A stretch of 64,000 nucleotides of DNA from Pseudomonadota bacterium (GCA_016702545.1 JADJDT010000008.1:192683-256682), one strand, 5' to 3'. Positions 11,769-41,812 are shown, numbered from the stretch's first letter. Notes: generated from the letters alone by a model not told the origin. Numbers and translations: made by a program.

Positions 11769-14011
11769 CAGCTCGATCCTCCCCGCGCGGCCCGCAGCGA
11801 GCGACGCAAGCGCCCCAGCAGCGTCTCGAGCTGCTGCGCCTGCGCTGCGCTCAGGCCGCTGCGGCCAAAGCGGGCGGCATAGTAGCAGCGGGTCAGCTCC
11901 TCGACCAGCGCCGCCGCGGGATGGCCCGCGCGCGCGAGCCGCGCGGCCAGCTCGACCGGCGTGGTGTCCGCGGGCCGGGGGATGCCCGCGCGCGCCAGCG
12001 CCCGCAGCGCGCGGCCGTAGACGCGCGTCGCCGGGTGCGCACGCGCCCTGCCGCGCCCTGTCGCGCGCGGCAGGGCGCGGCCGCCGCCGCCGGGGCGTCG
12101 CAGCAGCAGCCAGGCGGCCCCGGCGCCGATCGCGACCAGCAGCAGCAGCAGCAGCGGGCGGCGCCGGCCGCTCGGCAGGGCCGCGTCCGGGCCCGGCGTG
12201 GGGCTCCGGCCGCGCAGCAGGCGTCCGGCGGCGACGAAGAGCGTGCGCTGCTTGCTCAGGTCGTACTCGATGACATAGCGCAGCCAGCGCAGGCGCAGCG
12301 TATCGACGAGCTCTTGCAGCGGCAGCAGCCAGCCGCCGGCCAGGGTCGGGGGCTCGCCGCCCGCCGGTGTGGCGTCGAAGGCGACCCAGCCGAGGCCCGG
12401 CAGCAGCACCTCGGTCCAGGCGTGCGCGTCCGACTGCCGCACGGCCAGATAGCGCCCGTAGCCGTTCCACTGCCCGCCGAGCAGGCCGTTGACGTGGCGC
12501 GTGGGCACGTCGACGGCGCGCAGCAGGATCGCCAGCGCGGTGGCGAAGTACTCGCAGTGCCCGGCGCGCCGCTCGAAGAGAAAGCTATCGAGCGCGTCGG
12601 CGCCGGCCGGGGGCGCGACCAGCGCCGTGGTGTAGCGGTAGGCGCGCTGCAGGTGCCTTTGCAGCGCGAGCGCCTTGTCGTAGGCCGAGACACGCCCCGC
12701 AGTGACGCGCCGCGCCAGCGCGATCACCCGCGGCGGCAGGCTGGGTGGCAGTCGTAGGTAGCGCGCCAGCCGGCGGTCGCCGGGCGGGATCAGGGCCTGG
12801 CGCGCGAGCGCCGGGTCGGGCGTGTAGAGCTGCGAGTAGACCACGTAGCGCAGACCGGCGCTGCGCGGGCGCCCCGCGCGCAGCTCACCCAGCGGGCCGC
12901 GCTGCGGCACGAAGAGGCGCCGGCTCAGCAGCGGTGGGTCGATCAGCTCGAGCGCCACGGGCCGGTCGAGGCCGAAGAGCAGCGAGGAGCCGATTGGCTC
13001 GAGGTAGATTTCCTGGCGCAGCAGGTGCTCGCGCAGCCAACGGGTGGTCGGGCGCTGCGGCAGGCCCGGCGCGGGATTGGCCCAGTAGAGGCCGTCTACG
13101 GCCACCAGATCGTCGGTGCGACCGCTCAGCTCGGGGCTGTGGCTCCAGGCGCCGCCCTCGTAGCGGTCATAGACCGAGCCGCGCCAGCGTAGCCGGCCGG
13201 TGGCGCGCAGCGCCTCGACGCGGCGCGGATCGAGCACCACGCGCAGCACCACCTGCGGGTTGTCGCGGATCGCGCCGTGCTGGCCGAGCTGCACCTGCTC
13301 GCTGAAACCCGCCACCAGCGCCCCGCGCCGCTGCGCGCCCGAGAAGAGCCCGAAGCCGATGCGCGGGAAGCTGACGAAGACGGCCAGCGCGCCGGCCAGC
13401 ATCCCCAGCGAGAGCAGCGAGGTGCCGGCAAGGAAGCGCAGGCCGATGAGCTGCCGCGTGGCGAGCGCGGTCGGCTCGGGGGCAGCGGGGCCGGCGGGCG
13501 GCGCGGGCGCGGTGGCACCGCCGCTGCTGGTGGCGGCCTGGGCCTGCTGCTCGAGCTCGCGGCGGAGCTGCAGCAGCACCAGCGACCAGGTGGCGGCGAC
13601 GGTGAAGGCGACGAAGCAGAGCGCGTAGGACAGCTCGGTGTTGAGCGCCGTGGCGACGATCAACAGCAGGAAGGCGATGATCGTGGTCTGCTGGTAGTCG
13701 GAGCTGCTGCGGCGGTTGAAGAGCTTGTTGACCAGCAGCACCAGCAGGAAGGTCACGCCGGCGTCGACGATCGAGTCCCCTTGCAGCACGCGCACCGCGA
13801 GCACGCAGAGCACCACCAACGTGCCCAGGTTCCAGATCGCCGCCCAGCGCTCGGCCCGGTAACGCGGCGCCTCGGCCCACCAGCTCGCCACCACGCCGAG
13901 CAAGGCCAGCGCGTGCCCCGCCCGCGCCACCCCCGGCCCCAAGAGCGCGGCCGCCAACGCGGCCGCCGCCATCAGGTAGGTGCTCAGCTTGTGCAGCGTG
14001 AGGAAACGCAC
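11768..14011 (-). CDS. Transglutaminase-like protein with N-terminal multi-TM DUF3488-type region (TgpA-like)
   Basis: Cys-His-Asp core: RRAGHCEYFATALAILLRAV ... SDAHAWTEVLL ... WVAFDATP. The N-terminus has six hydrophobic helices. Start taken as GTG VRFLTLHKL (14011); the alternative is ATG at 13971. Confidence 0.8.
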   Translation of the reverse strand: MRFLTLHKLSTYLMAAAALAAALLGPGVARAGHALALLGVVASWWAEAPRYRAERWAAIWNLGTLVVLCVLAVRVLQGDSIVDAGVTFLLVLLVNKLFNRRSSSDYQQTTIIAFLLLIVATALNTELSYALCFVAFTVAATWSLVLLQLRRELEQQAQAATSSGGATAPAPPAGPAAPEPTALATRQLIGLRFLAGTSLLSLGMLAGALAVFVSFPRIGFGLFSGAQRRGALVAGFSEQVQLGQHGAIRDNPQVVLRVVLDPRRVEALRATGRLRWRGSVYDRYEGGAWSHSPELSGRTDDLVAVDGLYWANPAPGLPQRPTTRWLREHLLRQEIYLEPIGSSLLFGLDRPVALELIDPPLLSRRLFVPQRGPLGELRAGRPRSAGLRYVVYSQLYTPDPALARQALIPPGDRRLARYLRLPPSLPPRVIALARRVTAGRVSAYDKALALQRHLQRAYRYTTALVAPPAGADALDSFLFERRAGHCEYFATALAILLRAVDVPTRHVNGLLGGQWNGYGRYLAVRQSDAHAWTEVLLPGLGWVAFDATPAGGEPPTLAGGWLLPLQELVDTLRLRWLRYVIEYDLSKQRTLFVAAGRLLRGRSPTPGPDAALPSGRRRPLLLLLLVAIGAGAAWLLLRRPGGGGRALPRATGRGRARAHPATRVYGRALRALARAGIPRPADTTPVELAARLARAGHPAAALVEELTRCYYAARFGRSGLSAAQAQQLETLLGRLRRSLRAARGGSS

Positions 14012-15889: not shown

Positions 15890-16617
15890 GCGCGCCCGAG
15901 AAGAGCCCGAAGCCGATGCGCGGGAAGCTGACGAAGACGGCCAGCGCGCCGGCCAGCATCCCCAGCGAGAGCAGCGAGGTGCCGGCAACGAAGCGCAGGC
16001 CGATGAGCTGCCGCGTGGCGAGCGCGGTCGGCTCGGGGGCAGCGGGGCCGGCGGGCGGCGCGGGCGCGGTGGCACCGCCGCTGCTGGCGGCGGCCTGGGC
16101 CTGCTGCTCGAGCTCGCGCCGCAGCTGCAGCAGCACCAGCGACCAGGTGGCGGCGACGGTGAAGGCGACGAAGCAGAACGCGTAGGACAGCTCGGTGTTG
16201 AGCGCCGTGGCGACGATCAACAGCAGGAAGGCGATGATCGTGTCTGCTGGTAGTCGGAGCTGCTGCGGCGGTTGAAGAGCTTGTTGACCAGCAGCACCAG
16301 CAGGAAGGTCACGCCGGCGTCGACGATCGAGTCCCCTTGCAGCACGCGCACCGCGAGCACGCAGAGCACCAGCAGCGTGCCCAGGTTCCAGATCGCCGCC
16401 CAGCGCTCGGCCCGGTAACGCGGCGCCTCGGCCCACCAGCTCGCCACCACGCCGAGCCAGGCCAGCGCGTGCCCCGCCCGCGCCACCCCCGACCCCAGAG
16501 CGCGGCCGCCAACGCGGCCGCCGCCATCAGGTAGGTGCTCAGCTTGTGCAGCGTGAGGAATCGCACGGCCGCATCGTAGCGACTACCGCGCCAGTCGGCG
16601 AGCGGCGGTGCTCGCGA
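15890..16617 (-). pseudogene. Decayed duplicate of the 5' end (plus ~50 bp upstream) of the transglutaminase-like gene
   Basis: Nearly identical to 13333-14062, differing by a few substitutions and two 1-nt deletions (gatcgtg-tctgctgg; cccccgacccc-agagc) that break the frame. The track shows it split over ORFs 14975..16075, 15756..16436 and 16217..16486. Confidence 0.85.
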
Positions 16618-32315: not shown

Positions 32316-33287
32316 CTAGCCCAGCACCTCTTCGGGCAGCTCGCCGGAGAAGAACTGGCGCTCCAGGTCCTCGATCAGCTCGACGAAGACGCGGCGCTCC
32401 GTGGCGTTGGGGAAGGACAGGCTGATCCCCATCCCGCGATCGGCGCCCTCCTCGATCAAGCGACAGACGCGCCCCATCAGATGGATCGGCGGCTGCTGCT
32501 TCAGCGGCGGTGCGAGCACGAGGTCGATCGGCGTGCCCACAGGCAGCAACTCATGCGAGCGGATGAAGACGCCCTCTTCGTTGATGTCGCGCGTGAAGTT
32601 GACGCGCCGACCGGTGCGGCCGCTGTAGGTCGCGCGCAGGCGCAGCGGCAAACGGCGCAGCTGGCGCTGATCCGAGGCGGCGCCGCTGACCCAGCGGTTG
32701 AGGTAGCTGACCTTGGCGCGCTGACTGGGGTGCAGCTGGATGCCGACGCCGGCGCGCGCGCGCGCGTCGTTGCGCCCGGTGCGGCGCCACGTCGCTACAC
32801 CGTCGAGGAAGCAGCGTGGGCCGCCGATGAAGGTCACCTCCAGTCGCACGGCCGCGCCCACCTGGGGCGGCACGCCGACCGGGCAGAAGATGCCGCCGCC
32901 GGCGAGATTCGCATCGAAGTAGCGCGACCAATCCTCGCGGGTCGGAACGCGCAGGCGTAGGCGCACCACCTCGCCCGTGCGGCGCGGGGGCTCGGGGTCG
33001 GGCTCGGAGCGCCGCTCGCTTGAGTCGCTGTCGAGCTCGTGCAGCAGCGCCGAGCTGGCAGGTCGCACGCCGCTGCTGCTGCGCCGCGCACGTGGCGCGC
33101 CGTGGCCCGGTGAGCTCAGGCCGCTGGCACCCGGCGAGGACGCGGCACCCGGCGGGGACGCGCTGCTCTGGGACACCGCCGGGCCGTATTCGCCGCTCGG
33201 CGAGGCCGCGGGTGTCGCCAGCGCCGAGGGCCGACGCGCCGGCTCTCGCTGCGGCGTGGAGGCGCCCGGGCCGGCGTCGTAGGCCAC
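32316..33287 (-). CDS. Tandem PilZ-domain region, probably the C-terminal part of the upstream Ser/Thr kinase (Pkn1-like architecture)
   Basis: A Pro/Ser/Ala linker followed by two PilZ-like units (RLRLRVP...ANLAGGGIF; RRLPLRLRATYSG...DINEEGVFIRS, that is RxxxR ... D/NxSxxG). GC3 is high from 33287 downward. Confidence 0.7.
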   Translation of the reverse strand: MAYDAGPGASTPQREPARRPSALATPAASPSGEYGPAVSQSSASPPGAASSPGASGLSSPGHGAPRARRSSSGVRPASSALLHELDSDSSERRSEPDPEPPRRTGEVVRLRLRVPTREDWSRYFDANLAGGGIFCPVGVPPQVGAAVRLEVTFIGGPRCFLDGVATWRRTGRNDARARAGVGIQLHPSQRAKVSYLNRWVSGAASDQRQLRRLPLRLRATYSGRTGRRVNFTRDINEEGVFIRSHELLPVGTPIDLVLAPPLKQQPPIHLMGRVCRLIEEGADRGMGISLSFPNATERRVFVELIEDLERQFFSGELPEEVLG

Positions 33288-34275
33288 CGCGATCCAGGTC
33301 GCCGAACGCCGGTAGCGTGCCCGTCGGACCGTGCGGCGGCTGGTCGCGCGACCAGCCGGGGAGTGCGGCCACGGGCCTGTCCGGGCCGGCGTGGGCCACT
33401 GCCGCGCGCTCTGCCGTCGTGCGTGGGACGGGGACCGCAGCCAGCGCGTGCGCCAGCTCGCTGACCCGCGAAAAGCGATCCTCGGGGTCCTTGGCCAGGG
33501 CGCGCAAGATCAGCTCGCAGAGCGCGTCGGGCAGGCCGGGCTCCAGCTCCTGCGGCGGCGTCGGTGGGAGCTGCACATGCGCCAACATGATGTCGAAGGC
33601 GCTCTCCGCGTAGAAGGGCACCATCCCCGTGGCGAGCTGATAGAGCGTCACGCCCAGCGAATACACGTCGGCGCGCCGGTCGACGGTGCGCAGCGCCTTG
33701 CACTGCTCGGGCGACATGAAGAGCAGCGTCCCCAGCATCGCCCCCGGCGCGGTCATCGTGTCGCCCTCGGCCACCACCTTGGCGATGCCGAAGTCGACCA
33801 CCTTGGGCAGCTCGCGGCTGCCCATCTGGGCGATCAGGATGTTGGAGGGCTTGAGGTCGCGGTGCACGATGTCGTGCTGATGGGCGTATTCGACGGCGTC
33901 GAGCACGGGCAGCATCAGGGCCTTGATGCGCTCGATCGGCATTGGTCCACCGAGCTCGAACATCACCTGGTCGAGGCCCGGTCCCTCGACGTACTCCATC
34001 GCGATCGCGTGTAGGTCGCCCTCGCGGACGAAGTCGTAGACCGTCGCGATGTGCGGGTGGTGCAGCTTCGCCTGCACCGCGGCCTCGGCGGTGAAGCGCG
34101 CCAGCTGGGCGCTGTTGGCGAGCAGCGGGCCGGCGAGCACCTTGATCGCCAGCGGCTGGCCGAGCCGAACGTGGGTCCCGCGGTAGACCACGGCCGTCGA
34201 GCCGGTGGCGAGCAGCCGGTCGATCCGGTACAGGCCACCGAGCACTTTGCCGATCAGGCGGTCGCTGGTCGTCAT
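33288..34275 (-). CDS. Ser/Thr protein kinase catalytic domain (frame runs on without a stop; junction with the PilZ frame near 33290-33400)
   Basis: LGGLYRIDRLLATGSTAVVYRG, AIKVL, HRDLKPSNILI, DFGIAKV and FMSPEQ. Beyond about 33290 the kinase frame becomes Arg-rich nonsense, while the +1 frame carries the PilZ domains. Confidence 0.8.
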
Positions 34276-37511: not shown

Positions 37512-39434
37512 TCAGAGACCGAAGCGGGCGAGCTTCTTGTGGAGGCCCTCGCGCGTGATGCCGAGCGTGGCCGCGGTGCGCGTCTTGTTGTGGCCGTGGT
37601 TGGCCAGCGCGGCGAGCAGCAGCTCGCGCTCGACCTGATCCAGCATCAGCTTCAAGGTGCCACTCGCCGGCAGCGCCTGCGGCGCGGCGAGCAGGCCGCC
37701 GTGCACGGCCGGTGAGAGCTGCTCGGCCTCGATCGGCGCGCCCTCGTCGACCATGATCGCCAGGCGCTGCATCTCGTTCTCCAGCTCGCGGATGTTGCCG
37801 GGCCAGCGATAGGCGCAGAGCCGCTCGAGCGCCCGCGGCGTGATCGCCGGGGCTGGCTTGCGAAGCTCCGCGGCGTAGCGCTGCAGGAAGCGCTCGGCGA
37901 GCAGCGGGATGTCCTCGACGCGCTCGCGCAGCGGCGGCATCGTGATCGGGAAGACCACCAGGCGATAGTAGAGGTCCTGGCGGAAGCGGCCGCTCTTGAC
38001 CTCCTCCTCGAGGTTGCGGTGCGTCGCGCAGACGATGCGCGCATCGACCTTGCGGCTGCGCGTCGCGCCGAGCGGGCGCACCTCCCCGTCCTGCAGCACG
38101 CGCAGCAGCTTGGCCTGCAGCGGGGCCGGCATCTCGCCGATCTCGTCGAGCAGCAGCGTGCCGCCGTCGGCCAGCTCGAACAGACCCTTCTTGTCCTGCT
38201 CGGCGCCGGTGAAGGCGCCCTTCCGGTGGCCGAAGAGCTCGCTCTCGAGCAGGGTCTCGGGCAAGGCGGCGCAGTTCTGCGCCACGAAGAGCTTGTCGCG
38301 GCGCCGGCTCTGCTCGTGGATCGCGCGGGCGATCAGCTCCTTGCCGGTGCCCGTCTCGCCGCCGATGCAGACCGTGACGCGGGTGTCGACCACCCGCTTG
38401 ACCTGCTGCAGCACCTGCTGCAGGGCCGGCGAACGGCCGATCAGCTGCTCGAAGGTCGGCCGCGGCTCACGGGCCCGCAGGTAGCTGTTCTCTTGCTCCG
38501 CGCGCTCGCGCGCCACGCGGAGCTGCTCATAGAGGCGCGCGTTCTCCAGCGCCAGCGCCGCCGGCTCGCCAAGGAGCAGCAGCAACTCGAGGTCGCGCTC
38601 GGTGAAGATGCCGCTGGCCCCGCGGTTGTCGGCGGCGATCACGCCGACCAGCAGCTCGCCGCGCCAGAGCGGGGCTGCCAGCGTCGAGTGGATCGCCGCG
38701 CCCATGATGCTTTCGCTGCGACCCAGGTCCTCGGCGGCGTGCGCCGCCAGCACCCCGCTGCGTTGCTCGAGCACACGGCGCAGCAGGGCGCGGCTGACCG
38801 CGACCGCGTCGGCGGGCAGCTCCCCACTGCGCGCGCGCGAGCAGGCGGGCGCCAGGCGCCCCTCGCCCGGCTGCCCCTGCTCGAGCAGAATCGCGACGTG
38901 CGTGGCGCGGGGCAGCAGCGCGAGCGTGGCCTGGGCGGTCGCCTCGAGCACGGCGCCGAGCTCCGGCTGGCTGCCGAGCAGCCGCACGGCGCGGTAGAGC
39001 GCCGCGAGATCACCGCTGCGCGCCACCTCGCCGGTCAGGCGTCCGAGGTCGGCTAGCGCGCGGGTGGCGAGCACGCGCACCGTCAGGTCGCCCTCGGGCG
39101 TGGCCGCCACCACGATCGAGCAGCGCACGATCACCGGCGAGCTGGGGTCGCCGAGCAGCAGCTCGTCGCCGTCCTGCAGCAGCGCCTCTCGCTGGGGCTC
39201 CCCGTCGAGCACGAGGCGTTCGCTGCCGCGTGCCACCACCGAGCCGTTGGTCGAGCGCAGGTCGCGGTAGACGTAGTGATCCTGCTCGCGGAAGATCAGC
39301 CCGTGCTCGGCCGAGAGGTGCGCGTCTTGGAGCTGCAGGTCAGCCTCGGGCACGCGACCGATCAGGAGCTGGGCCGTGTCGGCCTCGTGGACGTGGCCTC
39401 GGTCGGCGCCTTCCAGCACGTCGAGTCGGATCAT
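37512..39434 (-). CDS. Sigma-54-dependent transcriptional activator with FHA and GAF sensor domains
   Basis: N-terminal FHA (LLIGRVPEADLQLQDAHLSAEHGLI...STNGSVV), a GAF-like middle, an AAA+ core (GETGTGKELIARAIH, ESELFGHRKGAFTGA, DVRIVCATHRNL-like) and a Fis-type HTH (NKTRTAATLGITREGLHKKL). Confidence 0.9.
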   Translation of the reverse strand: MIRLDVLEGADRGHVHEADTAQLLIGRVPEADLQLQDAHLSAEHGLIFREQDHYVYRDLRSTNGSVVARGSERLVLDGEPQREALLQDGDELLLGDPSSPVIVRCSIVVAATPEGDLTVRVLATRALADLGRLTGEVARSGDLAALYRAVRLLGSQPELGAVLEATAQATLALLPRATHVAILLEQGQPGEGRLAPACSRARSGELPADAVAVSRALLRRVLEQRSGVLAAHAAEDLGRSESIMGAAIHSTLAAPLWRGELLVGVIAADNRGASGIFTERDLELLLLLGEPAALALENARLYEQLRVARERAEQENSYLRAREPRPTFEQLIGRSPALQQVLQQVKRVVDTRVTVCIGGETGTGKELIARAIHEQSRRRDKLFVAQNCAALPETLLESELFGHRKGAFTGAEQDKKGLFELADGGTLLLDEIGEMPAPLQAKLLRVLQDGEVRPLGATRSRKVDARIVCATHRNLEEEVKSGRFRQDLYYRLVVFPITMPPLRERVEDIPLLAERFLQRYAAELRKPAPAITPRALERLCAYRWPGNIRELENEMQRLAIMVDEGAPIEAEQLSPAVHGGLLAAPQALPASGTLKLMLDQVERELLLAALANHGHNKTRTAATLGITREGLHKKLARFGL

Positions 39435-39438
39435 GGTG

Positions 39439-40148
39439 TCACCGCAGGCGCCAGGTCAGTTCGGTATGACCGAGTGGCCCCGAGAGGCTGAGCAGCAACG
39501 CGCGCGTCTCGGCGCGCACCAGCGCCCGCCCATCGGGCAGCGTGCGGGGGAACTCGACGCGATAGAGCTCGTAGAAGGTGCCGAGGTGCGGCAGCATCGC
39601 GCGGTCCGCGGTCGAGGTCCGCCGCTCGCGCACGATGCGACCGGCGCGCACCTGGTCACCGCGATCGTTGAGCAAGGCCAGCCGCCACTGCGAGCGCGGG
39701 CGATCGAAGTCGTTCCAGTCGCGATCGTGGGCGGCGGCGACGACGAAGAAGCTGTAGCTCTGGGCGTGCTGCGCGGCGAGCTCCTGCGCGAGCTGTTGGC
39801 GCTCCGACGCGGCGAGGTGAAAGATCGCCGACCAGCGCGCCAGATAAGCCGCGTCGAAGTCGGGAGCGCGCAGCGTGGCGTAGACGCGCAGCGTCGTTCC
39901 CAGCTCCCGCAGCACGGTGATGGCTTGATGCCGGGTCCAGCGCGCCAGCACCGTGCGGTAGTCGGCCGCGGCGTAGGGCCTGCGGGGGCTGCTGTGCAGC
40001 GCGACGACCGGGTTGGGCGTGATGCAGGACGTGAGCGCGCCGAGGCTCGTGACGAGCAGCGCGGTGCACAGACGCCCGGCCCAGCCCCCCGCCGCGGGCG
40101 AGACGTGGCCCCCCGCCGCGGGCGAGACGTGAACGAGTGGGCGCTCAC
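39439..40148 (-). CDS. Hypothetical lipoprotein, 5' end unresolved
   Basis: A 100% GC3 frame encodes GRLCTALLVTSLGALTSC (lipobox) upstream of the first canonical start (GTG 39951). No in-frame ATG/GTG/TTG precedes it. GTG at 40148 is in another frame, separated by C6 runs within a 24-bp tandem repeat. Confidence 0.45.
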
Positions 40149-40149
40149 G

Positions 40150-40965
40150 TCACCGGCGCTTGACGCGGCTCTTCTTGCCGGCCGCGGTCGGGGGACGCGG
40201 TACCTTAGCCTGGGTGCTGGCGCCGGCGCCGCTGGCACCGCGGCCGACCTCGAGGGCGATCGTCGTCGCGGCGGGGGACGCTGCCGGCGGCGCCGCGGCG
40301 GCACGACCGGGCCCCGCCGACCGCTCCGGTGCCCCCGATCGCTCCGGCGCCCCCGACCGCTCGGGCCCCGCCGACCGCTCCAGCCCCGCCGACCGCTCGC
40401 GTCGCAGCGCGAGCGGGGTCACTGGCGCCGTGGGGACGTTGGCACGGGCGCGTGGCGGTGGGGGGCTGCTCGCGGGCGGGGCGCTCGCCGCCGGGCGGCC
40501 GCTGCCGAGCGGCGTCCGGGCGCGGGCGTCGCTGGCCGCGGCCGCAGCGGGGCCGGCGGTCACGTTGCCTCGCAGTGCCGCACCATCGGCCATCACCAGC
40601 TGCGGACAGTGCACGTCGCCGAGCAGCTTGCCCTGCGCGCCGATGCGTACCGACTCGGTGGCGTTGACGTTGCCCACGAGCGTGCCGCCGACCAGCACCC
40701 GCGCCGCCTGGACATCGGCGACCACGACGCCTCCGGGCTCGATCACCAGCTCGTCGCCGAGCCGAATCGCCCCCTCGAGGTGTCCGGCCACGATCAGGCT
40801 GTCCTGACACTCGACCTCACCCTTGATCCGCGTCAGGGCGCCGATCACCGTGGCTTGGAGCGGTGCCTGGGGTGGTGCCTGCCGTTGGGCCTGTGGCTGT
40901 GCCTGTGGTTGGTTGATCATCGGGCTTCTTCCCTCGTACCCGCGCGGGCCCGTGGCGTCGGCCAC
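40150..40965 (-). CDS. Bactofilin with long Pro/Ala/Arg-rich C-terminal tail (BacP-like)
   Basis: Bactofilin core IKGEVECQDSLIVAGHLEGAIRLGDELVIEPGGVVVADVQAARVLVGGTLVGNV...GKLLGDVHCPQLVMADGAALRGNV. The tail contains (P/L)ERS(A/G)(G/A) x5, encoded by 18-bp tandem repeats at ~40311-40400. Confidence 0.85.
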   Translation of the reverse strand: MADATGPRGYEGRSPMINQPQAQPQAQRQAPPQAPLQATVIGALTRIKGEVECQDSLIVAGHLEGAIRLGDELVIEPGGVVVADVQAARVLVGGTLVGNVNATESVRIGAQGKLLGDVHCPQLVMADGAALRGNVTAGPAAAAASDARARTPLGSGRPAASAPPASSPPPPRARANVPTAPVTPLALRRERSAGLERSAGPERSGAPERSGAPERSAGPGRAAAAPPAASPAATTIALEVGRGASGAGASTQAKVPRPPTAAGKKSRVKRR

Positions 40966-40967
40966 GG

Positions 40968-41300
40968 CTACGCGCCCATCTCGATCGTGCCGCGGAAGGT
41001 GGCGCCCTCGGCGATCACCACGCGCGCGGCCTTGATGTCACCGATCAGCCGTGCGTTGGCTCGTAGCTCGACCTTCTGTCGCGCCACGACCTTCCCCTTG
41101 ACCTGGCCGCTGATCACCGCCGAATCCGCCTCGACGTCGGCCTCGACCACGCCCGAGGGTTCGACGACCAACGAGCGACTGAGCTGCAGCGTGCCCCTGA
41201 GGGTGCCCTCGACCACCAGGTCCTCGTCGGCGCTCACCTCGCCGTCGATCACCAGGGACGGGCCGATTACCGTGGTACCCATGCGAAGTCCTTCGTTCAC
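40968..41300 (-). CDS. Bactofilin (BacO-like)
   Basis: A 110-aa beta-helical repeat protein: VIGPSLVIDGEVSADEDLVVEGTLRGTL...VISGQVKGKVVARQKVELRANARLIGDIKAARVVIAEGATFRGTIEM. Confidence 0.85.
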   Translation of the reverse strand: MNEGLRMGTTVIGPSLVIDGEVSADEDLVVEGTLRGTLQLSRSLVVEPSGVVEADVEADSAVISGQVKGKVVARQKVELRANARLIGDIKAARVVIAEGATFRGTIEMGA

Positions 41301-41304
41301 GTCG

Positions 41305-41652
41305 CTAAGGCGCCGCGACTCCAGGCGGTAGGTCGAGGTCCATCTCGAGGCGCCCCGTGAAGGCGGCGCCCTCCTCGATCACGACGCGCTGCGCCTGCAG
41401 CGTGCCGTCGAAGCGGGCTCCGGCGACGATCGTGACGCCGCCGCTGGCCCGCACCTCGCCCCGCAGGGCGCCACGCAAGGTCAACTCGCCGACCTCGACG
41501 TCGGCCTCGACGGTGGCCGAGGGCTCGATCAGCAACGAGCGCTCGAGCGCGATGGTGCCCTCGACTCGCCCCTCCACCACCAGGTCCTCGCCGCCCGACA
41601 CGGTGCCGCGCACGGTCACCGTCTTGCCGATCACGCAGGGTTGTTCCGCCAT
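41305..41652 (-). CDS. Bactofilin (BacN-like)
   Basis: VIGKTVTVRGTVSGGEDLVVEGRVEGTIALERSLLIEPSATVEADVEVGELTLRGALRGEV...IEEGAAFTGRLEM. It is the first gene of the co-directional array. Confidence 0.85.
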   Translation of the reverse strand: MAEQPCVIGKTVTVRGTVSGGEDLVVEGRVEGTIALERSLLIEPSATVEADVEVGELTLRGALRGEVRASGGVTIVAGARFDGTLQAQRVVIEEGAAFTGRLEMDLDLPPGVAAP

Positions 41653-41754
41653 GCTGGCTCTCTGCTCGCTCTCTGCCGCGCCGGCCCTCTCGACGGGCGG
41701 CGCAGGTGTCGATCAGCGTTTGCCGTGTTTCGCCAAGCGAATCGAGGCTCTGGA

Positions 41755-41770
41755 AGCTAGCAGCGGGCCA
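41755..41770 (-). promoter_or_regulatory. Candidate sigma-54 (-24/-12) promoter upstream of the bactofilin array
   Basis: The minus strand reads TGGCCC-GCTGC-TAGCT with GG-N10-GC spacing (consensus TGGCAC-N5-TTGCW), about 100 nt upstream of the bacN-like ATG. A TTGACA hexamer lies 10 nt further upstream, so a sigma-70 reading is also possible. Confidence 0.2.
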
Positions 41771-41812
41771 AAGCCACTGTCAAGCCGGCGGTCGCGCGCG
41801 CTCGCGCTAACG

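Follow-up and report, generated by a model that had tools for sequence, protein, structure and literature searches.

A bactofilin triplet packed with a lipoprotein gene and an FHA-GAF sigma-54 activator gene: probable compaction of an old myxobacterial gene order

Introduction

What is understood of bactofilin scaffolds comes from partners encoded beside them, such as PadC in Myxococcus. We examined five genes, a bactofilin triplet followed by a lipoprotein gene and the gene of a sigma-54 enhancer-binding protein (EBP), in a 64,000-nt stretch of DNA (the window) from the Pseudomonadota bacterium assembly GCA_016702545.1 (JADJDT010000008.1:192683-256682; G000:C8:192683-256682 in our own genome and contig labels). 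The source is a Polyangia metagenome-assembled genome of 5.1 Mb in 52 contigs, 90% complete and with ~72% GC. An initial annotation of the window had raised the possibility of an autoregulatory sigma-54 circuit. Our analysis points elsewhere: the linkage is probably a compacted form of an old gene order that is widely shared among myxobacteria.

The clustering of bacNOP with padC has been reported only for Cystobacterineae (Lin et al. 2017, PMC5703909, Supplementary Fig. 3). In our literature search we found no paper that treats bactofilins together with either sigma-54 activators or pyrE.

Results

The five-gene cluster

The cluster consists of the following genes, all on the minus strand of the window.

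41652-41305, minus strand: bacN-like bactofilin, position 1 of the triplet, 115 aa; PF04519, 78.4 bits
41300-40968, minus strand: bacO-like bactofilin, longest ORF 110 aa from GTG 41300; PF04519, 94.5 bits
40965-40150, minus strand: bacP-like bactofilin, longest ORF 271 aa; PF04519, 80.8 bits, residues 39-135
40148-39439, minus strand: lipoprotein gene of an uncharacterised family, frameshifted in the assembly; GTG start at 40148, stop at 39439
39434-37512, minus strand: sigma-54 EBP, 640 aa; FHA, GAF_2, Sigma54_activat, AAA_lid_14 and HTH_8 (Pfam)

All five ORFs are present and co-oriented as initially annotated, and Pfam confirms the bactofilin and EBP domains. The three bactofilins score well above the cut-off of the Pfam Bactofilin family (PF04519 / DUF583; 27.9 bits), and each covers profile positions 1-97 or 2-97 of 98. 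The gaps of roughly 1-5 nt that had been described hold for only part of the cluster. Between bacP and the lipoprotein gene (1 nt) and between the lipoprotein gene and the EBP gene (4 nt) they are unaffected by the choice of bactofilin starts, whereas the spacing of 2-4 nt among the bactofilin genes is valid only with the GTG starts of the longest ORFs. The likely start of bacO is ATG 41282 (104 aa, the length called in relatives), with GAAGGA just 5' of it, and that of bacP is ATG 40920, in agreement with the starts called in relatives, with GAGGGAAG just 5' of it; both motifs fit as putative ribosome-binding sites. With these ATG starts the gaps among the bactofilin genes are 22 and 47 nt.

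BacP carries a long, Pro/Ala/Arg-rich C-terminal tail that is encoded in part by tandem repeats of 18 nt x 4.6 at 40317-40398. The repeats code for ERS(A/G)(G/A)P units, and a basic KKSRVKRR stands at the end of the tail. By whole-genome search the three bactofilins of the cluster are the only ones in the genome, with no bacM-like fourth bactofilin. In a maximum-likelihood tree of 18 triplets, the position-1 bactofilins form a single clade (support 97/98), as do those of position 2 (87/72), and we therefore infer from the tree that the triplet and its order predate the class split.

Conservation of the gene order

For 40 Polyangia genomes (18 families) and 20 genomes of other classes, we took the 7 kb to either side of the lipoprotein homologue and assigned the neighbours by tblastn, clustering of ORFs, Pfam and NCBIfam. 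The complete order bacN-bacO-bacP-lipoprotein-EBP is found again in GCA_016711215.1 and in two Logan contigs, where the 4-nt gap between lipoprotein and EBP genes is identical. In the three closest relatives the 1- and 4-nt gaps among bacP, lipoprotein and EBP genes, or overlaps in their place, are kept. Linkage of bactofilin and EBP genes, initially noticed in the window, is not unique to this genome but recurs in related ones.

Across the Polyangia the block is looser. One to three same-strand bactofilin genes lie 5' of the lipoprotein gene in 24 of the 40 loci, with a triplet in 10 (families f1, f2, f3, f19, f24 and f30 in our labelling), and pyrE, identified by TIGR00336 (117 bits against a cut-off of 106.8), lies immediately 5' of the lipoprotein gene in 30. 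An orthologous EBP gene follows 3' on the same strand in 17/40 loci, representing 7 of the 18 families (f1, f2, f3, f13, f18, f22 and f29). The identity of these orthologues over the FHA-GAF region is 40-52%, and 80% for the same-genus locus. Direct adjacency of EBP and lipoprotein genes is confined to the window's own family, f1 (3 of 4 relatives sampled), and f13; elsewhere the gene of a HEAT-repeat lipoprotein or of an opposite-strand receiver/DUF4388 protein lies between the two, over 1.5-3 kb. In Polyangiaceae the three elements are megabases apart, and genomes of f12, f19 and f21 that were searched gave no clear EBP orthologue (best matches ~30% identity). A divergent glutamate-cysteine ligase gene is often found at the edge of the block. 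Outside the Polyangia, bacN-bacO-bacP-(pyrE)-lipoprotein occurs in six more families, without the EBP gene.

Because pyrE, the lipoprotein gene and 1.5-3 kb of other sequence part the EBP gene from the bactofilin genes in most families, we read the tight packing of the five genes as local compaction and not as an ancestral regulatory design. From the gene order, the window's genus appears to have lost pyrE from the block. The best match to a block-type pyrE in the genome, C4:24278-24655, has 34% identity and lies inside a 561-aa frame; with a genome that is 90% complete, absence of the gene is not shown.

The promoter region upstream of bacN

The 160 nt upstream of bacN contain three predicted elements.

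41783-41754, minus strand: predicted sigma-70 promoter of the extended -10 type; TTGACA 41783-41778, 18-nt spacer, TGc 41762-41760, TAGCTT 41759-41754
41770-41755, minus strand: -24/-12-like string TGGCCCGCTGCTAGCT, two mismatches to TGGCAC-N5-TTGCW, inside the sigma-70 promoter
41741-41729, minus strand: palindrome TTCGC-N3-GCGAA, just 3' of the -10 box

The predicted sigma-70 promoter lies ~100 nt 5' of the bacN ATG and fits the layout expected of this type: -35 TTGACA, a spacer of 17 ± 1 nt, TGn and -10 TAnnnT. Its TTGACA and TAGCTT hexamers are invariant in the window and in the related loci L001 (same genus) and L002, and four spacer positions vary, some of them in the putative -24 element. 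The pattern TTGAC(A/C/G)-N14-17-TGnTAGnnT recurs ahead of the first bactofilin gene in eight lineages from four families, among them L032-L034 (f1), L037 (f3), L056 (f24) and L069 (f30). A stricter sigma-70 scan, requiring at least 4/6 matches in the -10 box, left TTGACA-N18-TGcTAGCTT unlisted.

The initial annotation had pointed to the -24/-12-like sequence at 41755-41770 as a possible, weakly called sigma-54 promoter. The string is indeed present, and its GG and GC dinucleotides stand at the correct spacing; as a sigma-54 promoter it does not hold up. Sites with two mismatches to the plain consensus number 19 in the window against 22 expected. With a weighted score (maximum 16) applied genome-wide, TGGCCCGCTGCTAGCT reaches 14, a score that is attained by 431 sites in the 5.1 Mb on both strands, or ~0.007 expected per 160-nt strand, and exceeded by 48. 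Upstream of the first bactofilin gene, the window and its congener are alone in scoring at least 14; other relatives reach at most 13 or lack GG-N10-GC, and the GG of the -24 element is absent outside the window's genus. In L002 the leading T of the -24 element has become C and the CC after GG has become GG, while the sigma-70 hexamers are unchanged. Only 29 nt separate the stop of the upstream gene from the -35 box, which leaves no room for an intergenic enhancer. The -24/-12-like string is thus most likely a by-product of the surrounding predicted sigma-70 promoter.

The arms of the palindrome are kept and its centre is variable in the window, L001/L032 and L002/L003, and it was not found in relatives at greater distance. 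It may serve as an operator or as a hairpin of the 5' untranslated region.

Near-perfect or perfect sigma-54 sites (TGGCACG-N4-TTGCT) occur elsewhere in the genome 10-100 nt 5' of long ORFs, at G000:C15:57358 (minus), C13:39474 (plus) and 46 further positions, and these 48 are candidate targets of the genome's EBPs. Separately, the 16-mer TGGCACCGCCGCTGCT, with one mismatch to the sigma-54 consensus, is found twice on the plus strand of the window, at 13513-13528 and 16070-16085. The two copies, 2.5 kb apart, probably belong to a coding segment that is repeated.

The lipoprotein and its family

The GTG at 40148 is out of frame with the body of the lipoprotein gene (40074-39439). Alignment with an intact relative of 94% identity (P0001/L007), whose protein begins VSAHSFT... 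at a start that corresponds to GTG 40148, attributes the shift to a 5-nt insertion, GGCGT, at 40076-40072. The body frame codes for the hydrophobic core of the signal peptide, the lipobox LTSC, with its Cys codon at 40026-40024, and a mature domain of ~190 aa; it contains no ATG, GTG or TTG ahead of 39951. Just upstream of the insertion lies a perfect tandem repeat of 24 nt x 2 (40084-40131) that is imperfect in the 94%-identical relative. A Ser/Thr kinase-PilZ gene of the window (32319-34275) is likewise broken between two frames, near 33260-33292, where the congener has one protein of 655 aa, so that two of 14 syntenic genes are broken. Because a second syntenic gene is also frame-split, the alignments favour assembly indels over real decay, and the lipoprotein frameshift is likely an assembly indel.

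A word-based homologue search returned merely five relatives of the lipoprotein and gave a false impression of a rare family, which whole-genome and exhaustive profile searches set right. By profile search the family is present in 286/401 genomes of the class and in 57/151 genomes sampled across the phylum, and it comprises 1,882 clusters at 50% identity among 1.84 billion proteins; named carriers include Sorangium, Chondromyces, Labilithrix and Minicystis, which identifies the class as Polyangia. A contig scan with our first alignment, of six sequences, had given no match, and the later 45-sequence alignment was too diverse for use in a pattern search. Members are uniform in length, at ~205-230 aa, and the residues Y, W, R, T, W, L, F and W are invariant among them. 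A signal peptide and a lipobox Cys are present in all homologues that we inspected, and the Cys is nearly invariant among the 45 sequences.

An AlphaFold2 model built with the 45 sequences predicts a mixed alpha/beta fold (pLDDT 92.9, pTM 0.87). Foldseek returned nothing for this model in the PDB at E <= 1e-3 (TM <= 0.29), and neither the profile search against PDB sequences nor Pfam and NCBIfam, including a scan of all 45 members, gave a match. Together these data predict an exported protein from a large, unannotated family with a confident, novel-looking fold.

The FHA-GAF activator

The last gene of the cluster encodes an FHA-GAF enhancer-binding protein, as initially annotated. Its product contains FHA (residues 24-95), GAF (161-297), an AAA+ sigma-54 interaction domain (331-497; PF00158, 247 bits), a lid and a Fis-type helix-turn-helix (HTH; 598-638; HTH_8, 44 bits), and its translation shows the Walker A and B motifs and the loop (GETGTGKE, GAFTGA, LLLDEIGE). 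The genome has an rpoN gene on contig C42 (PF04552, 214 bits), so the EBP has a sigma-54 partner. By its domains and motifs we consider it to be a genuine sigma-54 activator. We saw no consistently conserved gene 3' of the EBP gene that might be its target.

FHA-domain sigma-54 EBPs of myxobacteria have been described for M. xanthus development. The EBP of the window resembles them in its N-terminal FHA domain, central AAA+ domain with GAFTGA and C-terminal Fis-type HTH, and in having Ser/Thr kinase genes nearby, but it has an extra GAF domain between FHA and AAA+. GAF, AAA+ and HTH are shared with NifA- and NorR-type EBPs, which are also its best NCBIfam matches. It falls far under the equivalog cut-offs, however, with 381.3 against 528.85 for NifA (TIGR01817) and 376.3 against 476 for NorR (NF003451), and unlike these proteins it has an extra FHA domain and no nif or nor genes nearby. 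We therefore rejected both names; every other named NCBIfam equivalog was likewise missed at its cut-off. The protein belongs to a Polyangia-wide orthologous group without a characterised member.

PadC and ParB

The cluster contains no ParB-like gene, in line with the initial annotation, and the 90%-complete genome has a lone ParB_N match, on contig C14, with no second one. Ahead of the C14 gene, on its strand, lies an ORF of 283 aa. No ParB match was found in the 60 related loci (±7 kb). Five other Polyangia genomes, four plus the same-genus genome, have the canonical ParB match only, apart from a weak 27-bit match in G398 that lies far from the bactofilin genes; in G350 and G181, bactofilin triplets occur at other places in the genome. 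PadC is absent from the Polyangia loci examined.

The lipoprotein had been considered as a possible PadC-like protein. Since it is predicted to be exported, it is not a PadC-like ParB/Srx adaptor: the signal peptide, the lipobox and the lack of a PDB, Foldseek, Pfam or NCBIfam match rule this assignment out. For the window protein itself, the signal-peptide core and LTSC are coded and the start codon is out of frame through the 5-nt insertion.

In family f61 of another class (G451:C262, G459:C434 and G479:C5), a fourth bactofilin gene lies divergent from parB at a distance of 1-3 kb. These genomes have a weak second ParB_N match on a contig other than that of the bacNOP-pyrE-lipoprotein block.

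Neighbouring genes

One further gene lies immediately upstream of the cluster.

43396-41813, minus strand: FadL/OMPP1-like outer-membrane protein gene, upstream of bacN; PF03349, 42 bits

The FadL-like gene is syntenic in the same-genus locus L001, and an ORF of similar length stands at that place in L002. From this distribution it would be part of the syntenic neighbourhood, outside the conserved block. At the other end of the cluster, a TMEM260-like gene is convergent with the EBP gene.

Discussion

Like bacN-bacO-bacP-padC of M. xanthus (PMC5703909), the cluster has three co-oriented bactofilin genes in tandem, a long C-terminal tail on the third product (disordered in M. xanthus), and a putative operon with non-bactofilin genes downstream. 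The M. xanthus system is further defined by co-assembly of its bactofilins at subpolar sites and by PadC, an adaptor with a disordered N-terminus and a ParB/Srx domain that is encoded 3' of bacP. The cluster differs from that system (PMC5703909) in lacking a ParB/Srx gene, the downstream genes being those of an exported lipoprotein and a sigma-54 activator, and unlike M. xanthus this genome has no bacM-like fourth bactofilin. The conserved neighbourhood can also be compared with a second type of arrangement.

In other bacteria, bactofilin genes adjoin genes of envelope proteins such as an M23 peptidase or a penicillin-binding protein (PBP). The Polyangia loci resemble these pairs in that the gene of a cytoplasmic bactofilin is conserved beside the gene of an envelope-located protein. 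The lipoprotein here differs from M23 and PBP partners: its ~210 aa show neither an enzyme signature nor a known fold, and pyrE usually lies between its gene and that of the bactofilin.

We propose the following course of events. The ancestral block would have held three paralogous bactofilin genes followed by the gene of an exported lipoprotein, with an FHA-GAF activator gene farther 3' in part of the Polyangia. In the window's genus the intervening genes (pyrE, and the HEAT-repeat lipoprotein gene or the opposite-strand receiver/DUF4388 gene) would have been lost or moved, so that five genes now abut. They are most probably transcribed together from the conserved sigma-70 extended -10 promoter 5' of bacN, and translation of bacP, lipoprotein and EBP is probably coupled, because only 1 and 4 nt lie between them. 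If M. xanthus is a guide, the bactofilins presumably polymerise together as a scaffold in the cytoplasm, on which the BacP tail would be a docking site for clients; these clients must differ from those of M. xanthus, since PadC is absent. The EBP would be gated through FHA, by phospho-threonine from Ser/Thr kinases, and through GAF, by a small ligand, and its targets are most likely sigma-54 promoters outside its own operon. Taken as a whole, a compacted old block that is read as one transcript from a sigma-70 promoter, with an EBP acting elsewhere, is the explanation we hold to be probable, with considerable doubt left.

Several points weigh against this explanation. A single operon is deduced from spacing, strand and one conserved promoter. 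In most families other genes intervene before the EBP gene, which must therefore have its own promoter there, and an internal promoter may survive here. The lipoprotein frameshift, if real, would disturb the coupling to the EBP gene. The presence of pyrE in the ancestral block shows that some of the conservation may be no more than synteny among genes that share no function; the neighbourhood may have been kept for its function or as inherited gene order. Finally, the equivalence to BacNOP is one of gene position.

Of the other explanations, the one suggested at the outset is that sigma-54 polymerase starts at TGGCCC-N5-TAGCT and the cluster's own EBP activates both the scaffold genes and itself. 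An EBP gene in the cluster, rpoN in the genome, correctly spaced dinucleotides and the low chance expectation of the weighted score speak for it. They are offset by the plain-consensus count, by the invariance of the enclosing sigma-70 hexamers against a changing -24 element, by several relatives that keep the sigma-70 boxes while a score of at least 14 is confined to the same-genus locus, and by an enhancer that would need to lie in coding DNA; moreover, the 48 sites of the genome that score at least 15 are closer to consensus and mostly stand 10-100 nt 5' of ORFs. With the overlapping sigma-70 promoter conserved in four families and the -24 GG lost outside the genus, we regard autoregulation as very improbable. 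It is also conceivable that the five genes are not one unit, bacNOP forming an operon and one or both of the lipoprotein and EBP genes being read from internal promoters within the coding sequences that precede them, with adjacency a product of genome streamlining without co-regulation. The pyrE gene that parts bactofilin and lipoprotein genes in most Polyangia families, the 1.5-3 kb, at times on the opposite strand, between lipoprotein and EBP genes in most families, with an EBP gene that ancestrally had its own promoter, and the dispersed elements of Polyangiaceae would fit such separate units. The short gaps or overlaps retained in the three closest relatives are, on the other hand, typical of translational coupling, and there is neither a terminator-like site on the minus strand within the cluster nor a sigma-70-like or sigma-54-like site within 37512-41300, and we consider separate units unlikely.

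Somewhat doubtful, though a possibility to be taken seriously, is that this strain carries a true lipoprotein pseudogene within a cluster that is in decay and not functional as a whole. The 5-nt insertion leaves the start codon and n-region on one side and the signal-peptide core and mature protein on the other, and the body frame offers no in-frame start ahead of 39951. Against decay, the body is 94% identical to the intact relative with no further damage, and the frame-split kinase-PilZ gene lies 6 kb away; two broken genes out of 14 look more like assembly indels than like decay in the absence of selection.

The compacted-block explanation leaves room for a bolder thought, which we rate as quite improbable: that in PadC-less Polyangia and related classes the lipoprotein, and the FHA-GAF activator where it is nearby, act with BacNOP, for example by docking of FHA on a phosphorylated BacP tail. 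If true, the state of the scaffold would gate a sigma-54 regulon and the lipoprotein would be its envelope-side output, a cytoskeleton-coupled transcription switch of a kind not described for bactofilins.

The novelty of the present findings is modest: it lies in the phylum-wide bactofilin-pyrE-lipoprotein neighbourhood and in a large, unannotated lipoprotein family. Sigma-54 autoregulation was a false lead that can be set aside. For bactofilins in this phylum, the widely conserved neighbourhood consists of pyrE and an uncharacterised lipoprotein gene, joined in some families by the gene of an FHA-GAF sigma-54 activator, and these candidates, together with a conserved predicted promoter, are now at hand for experiments.

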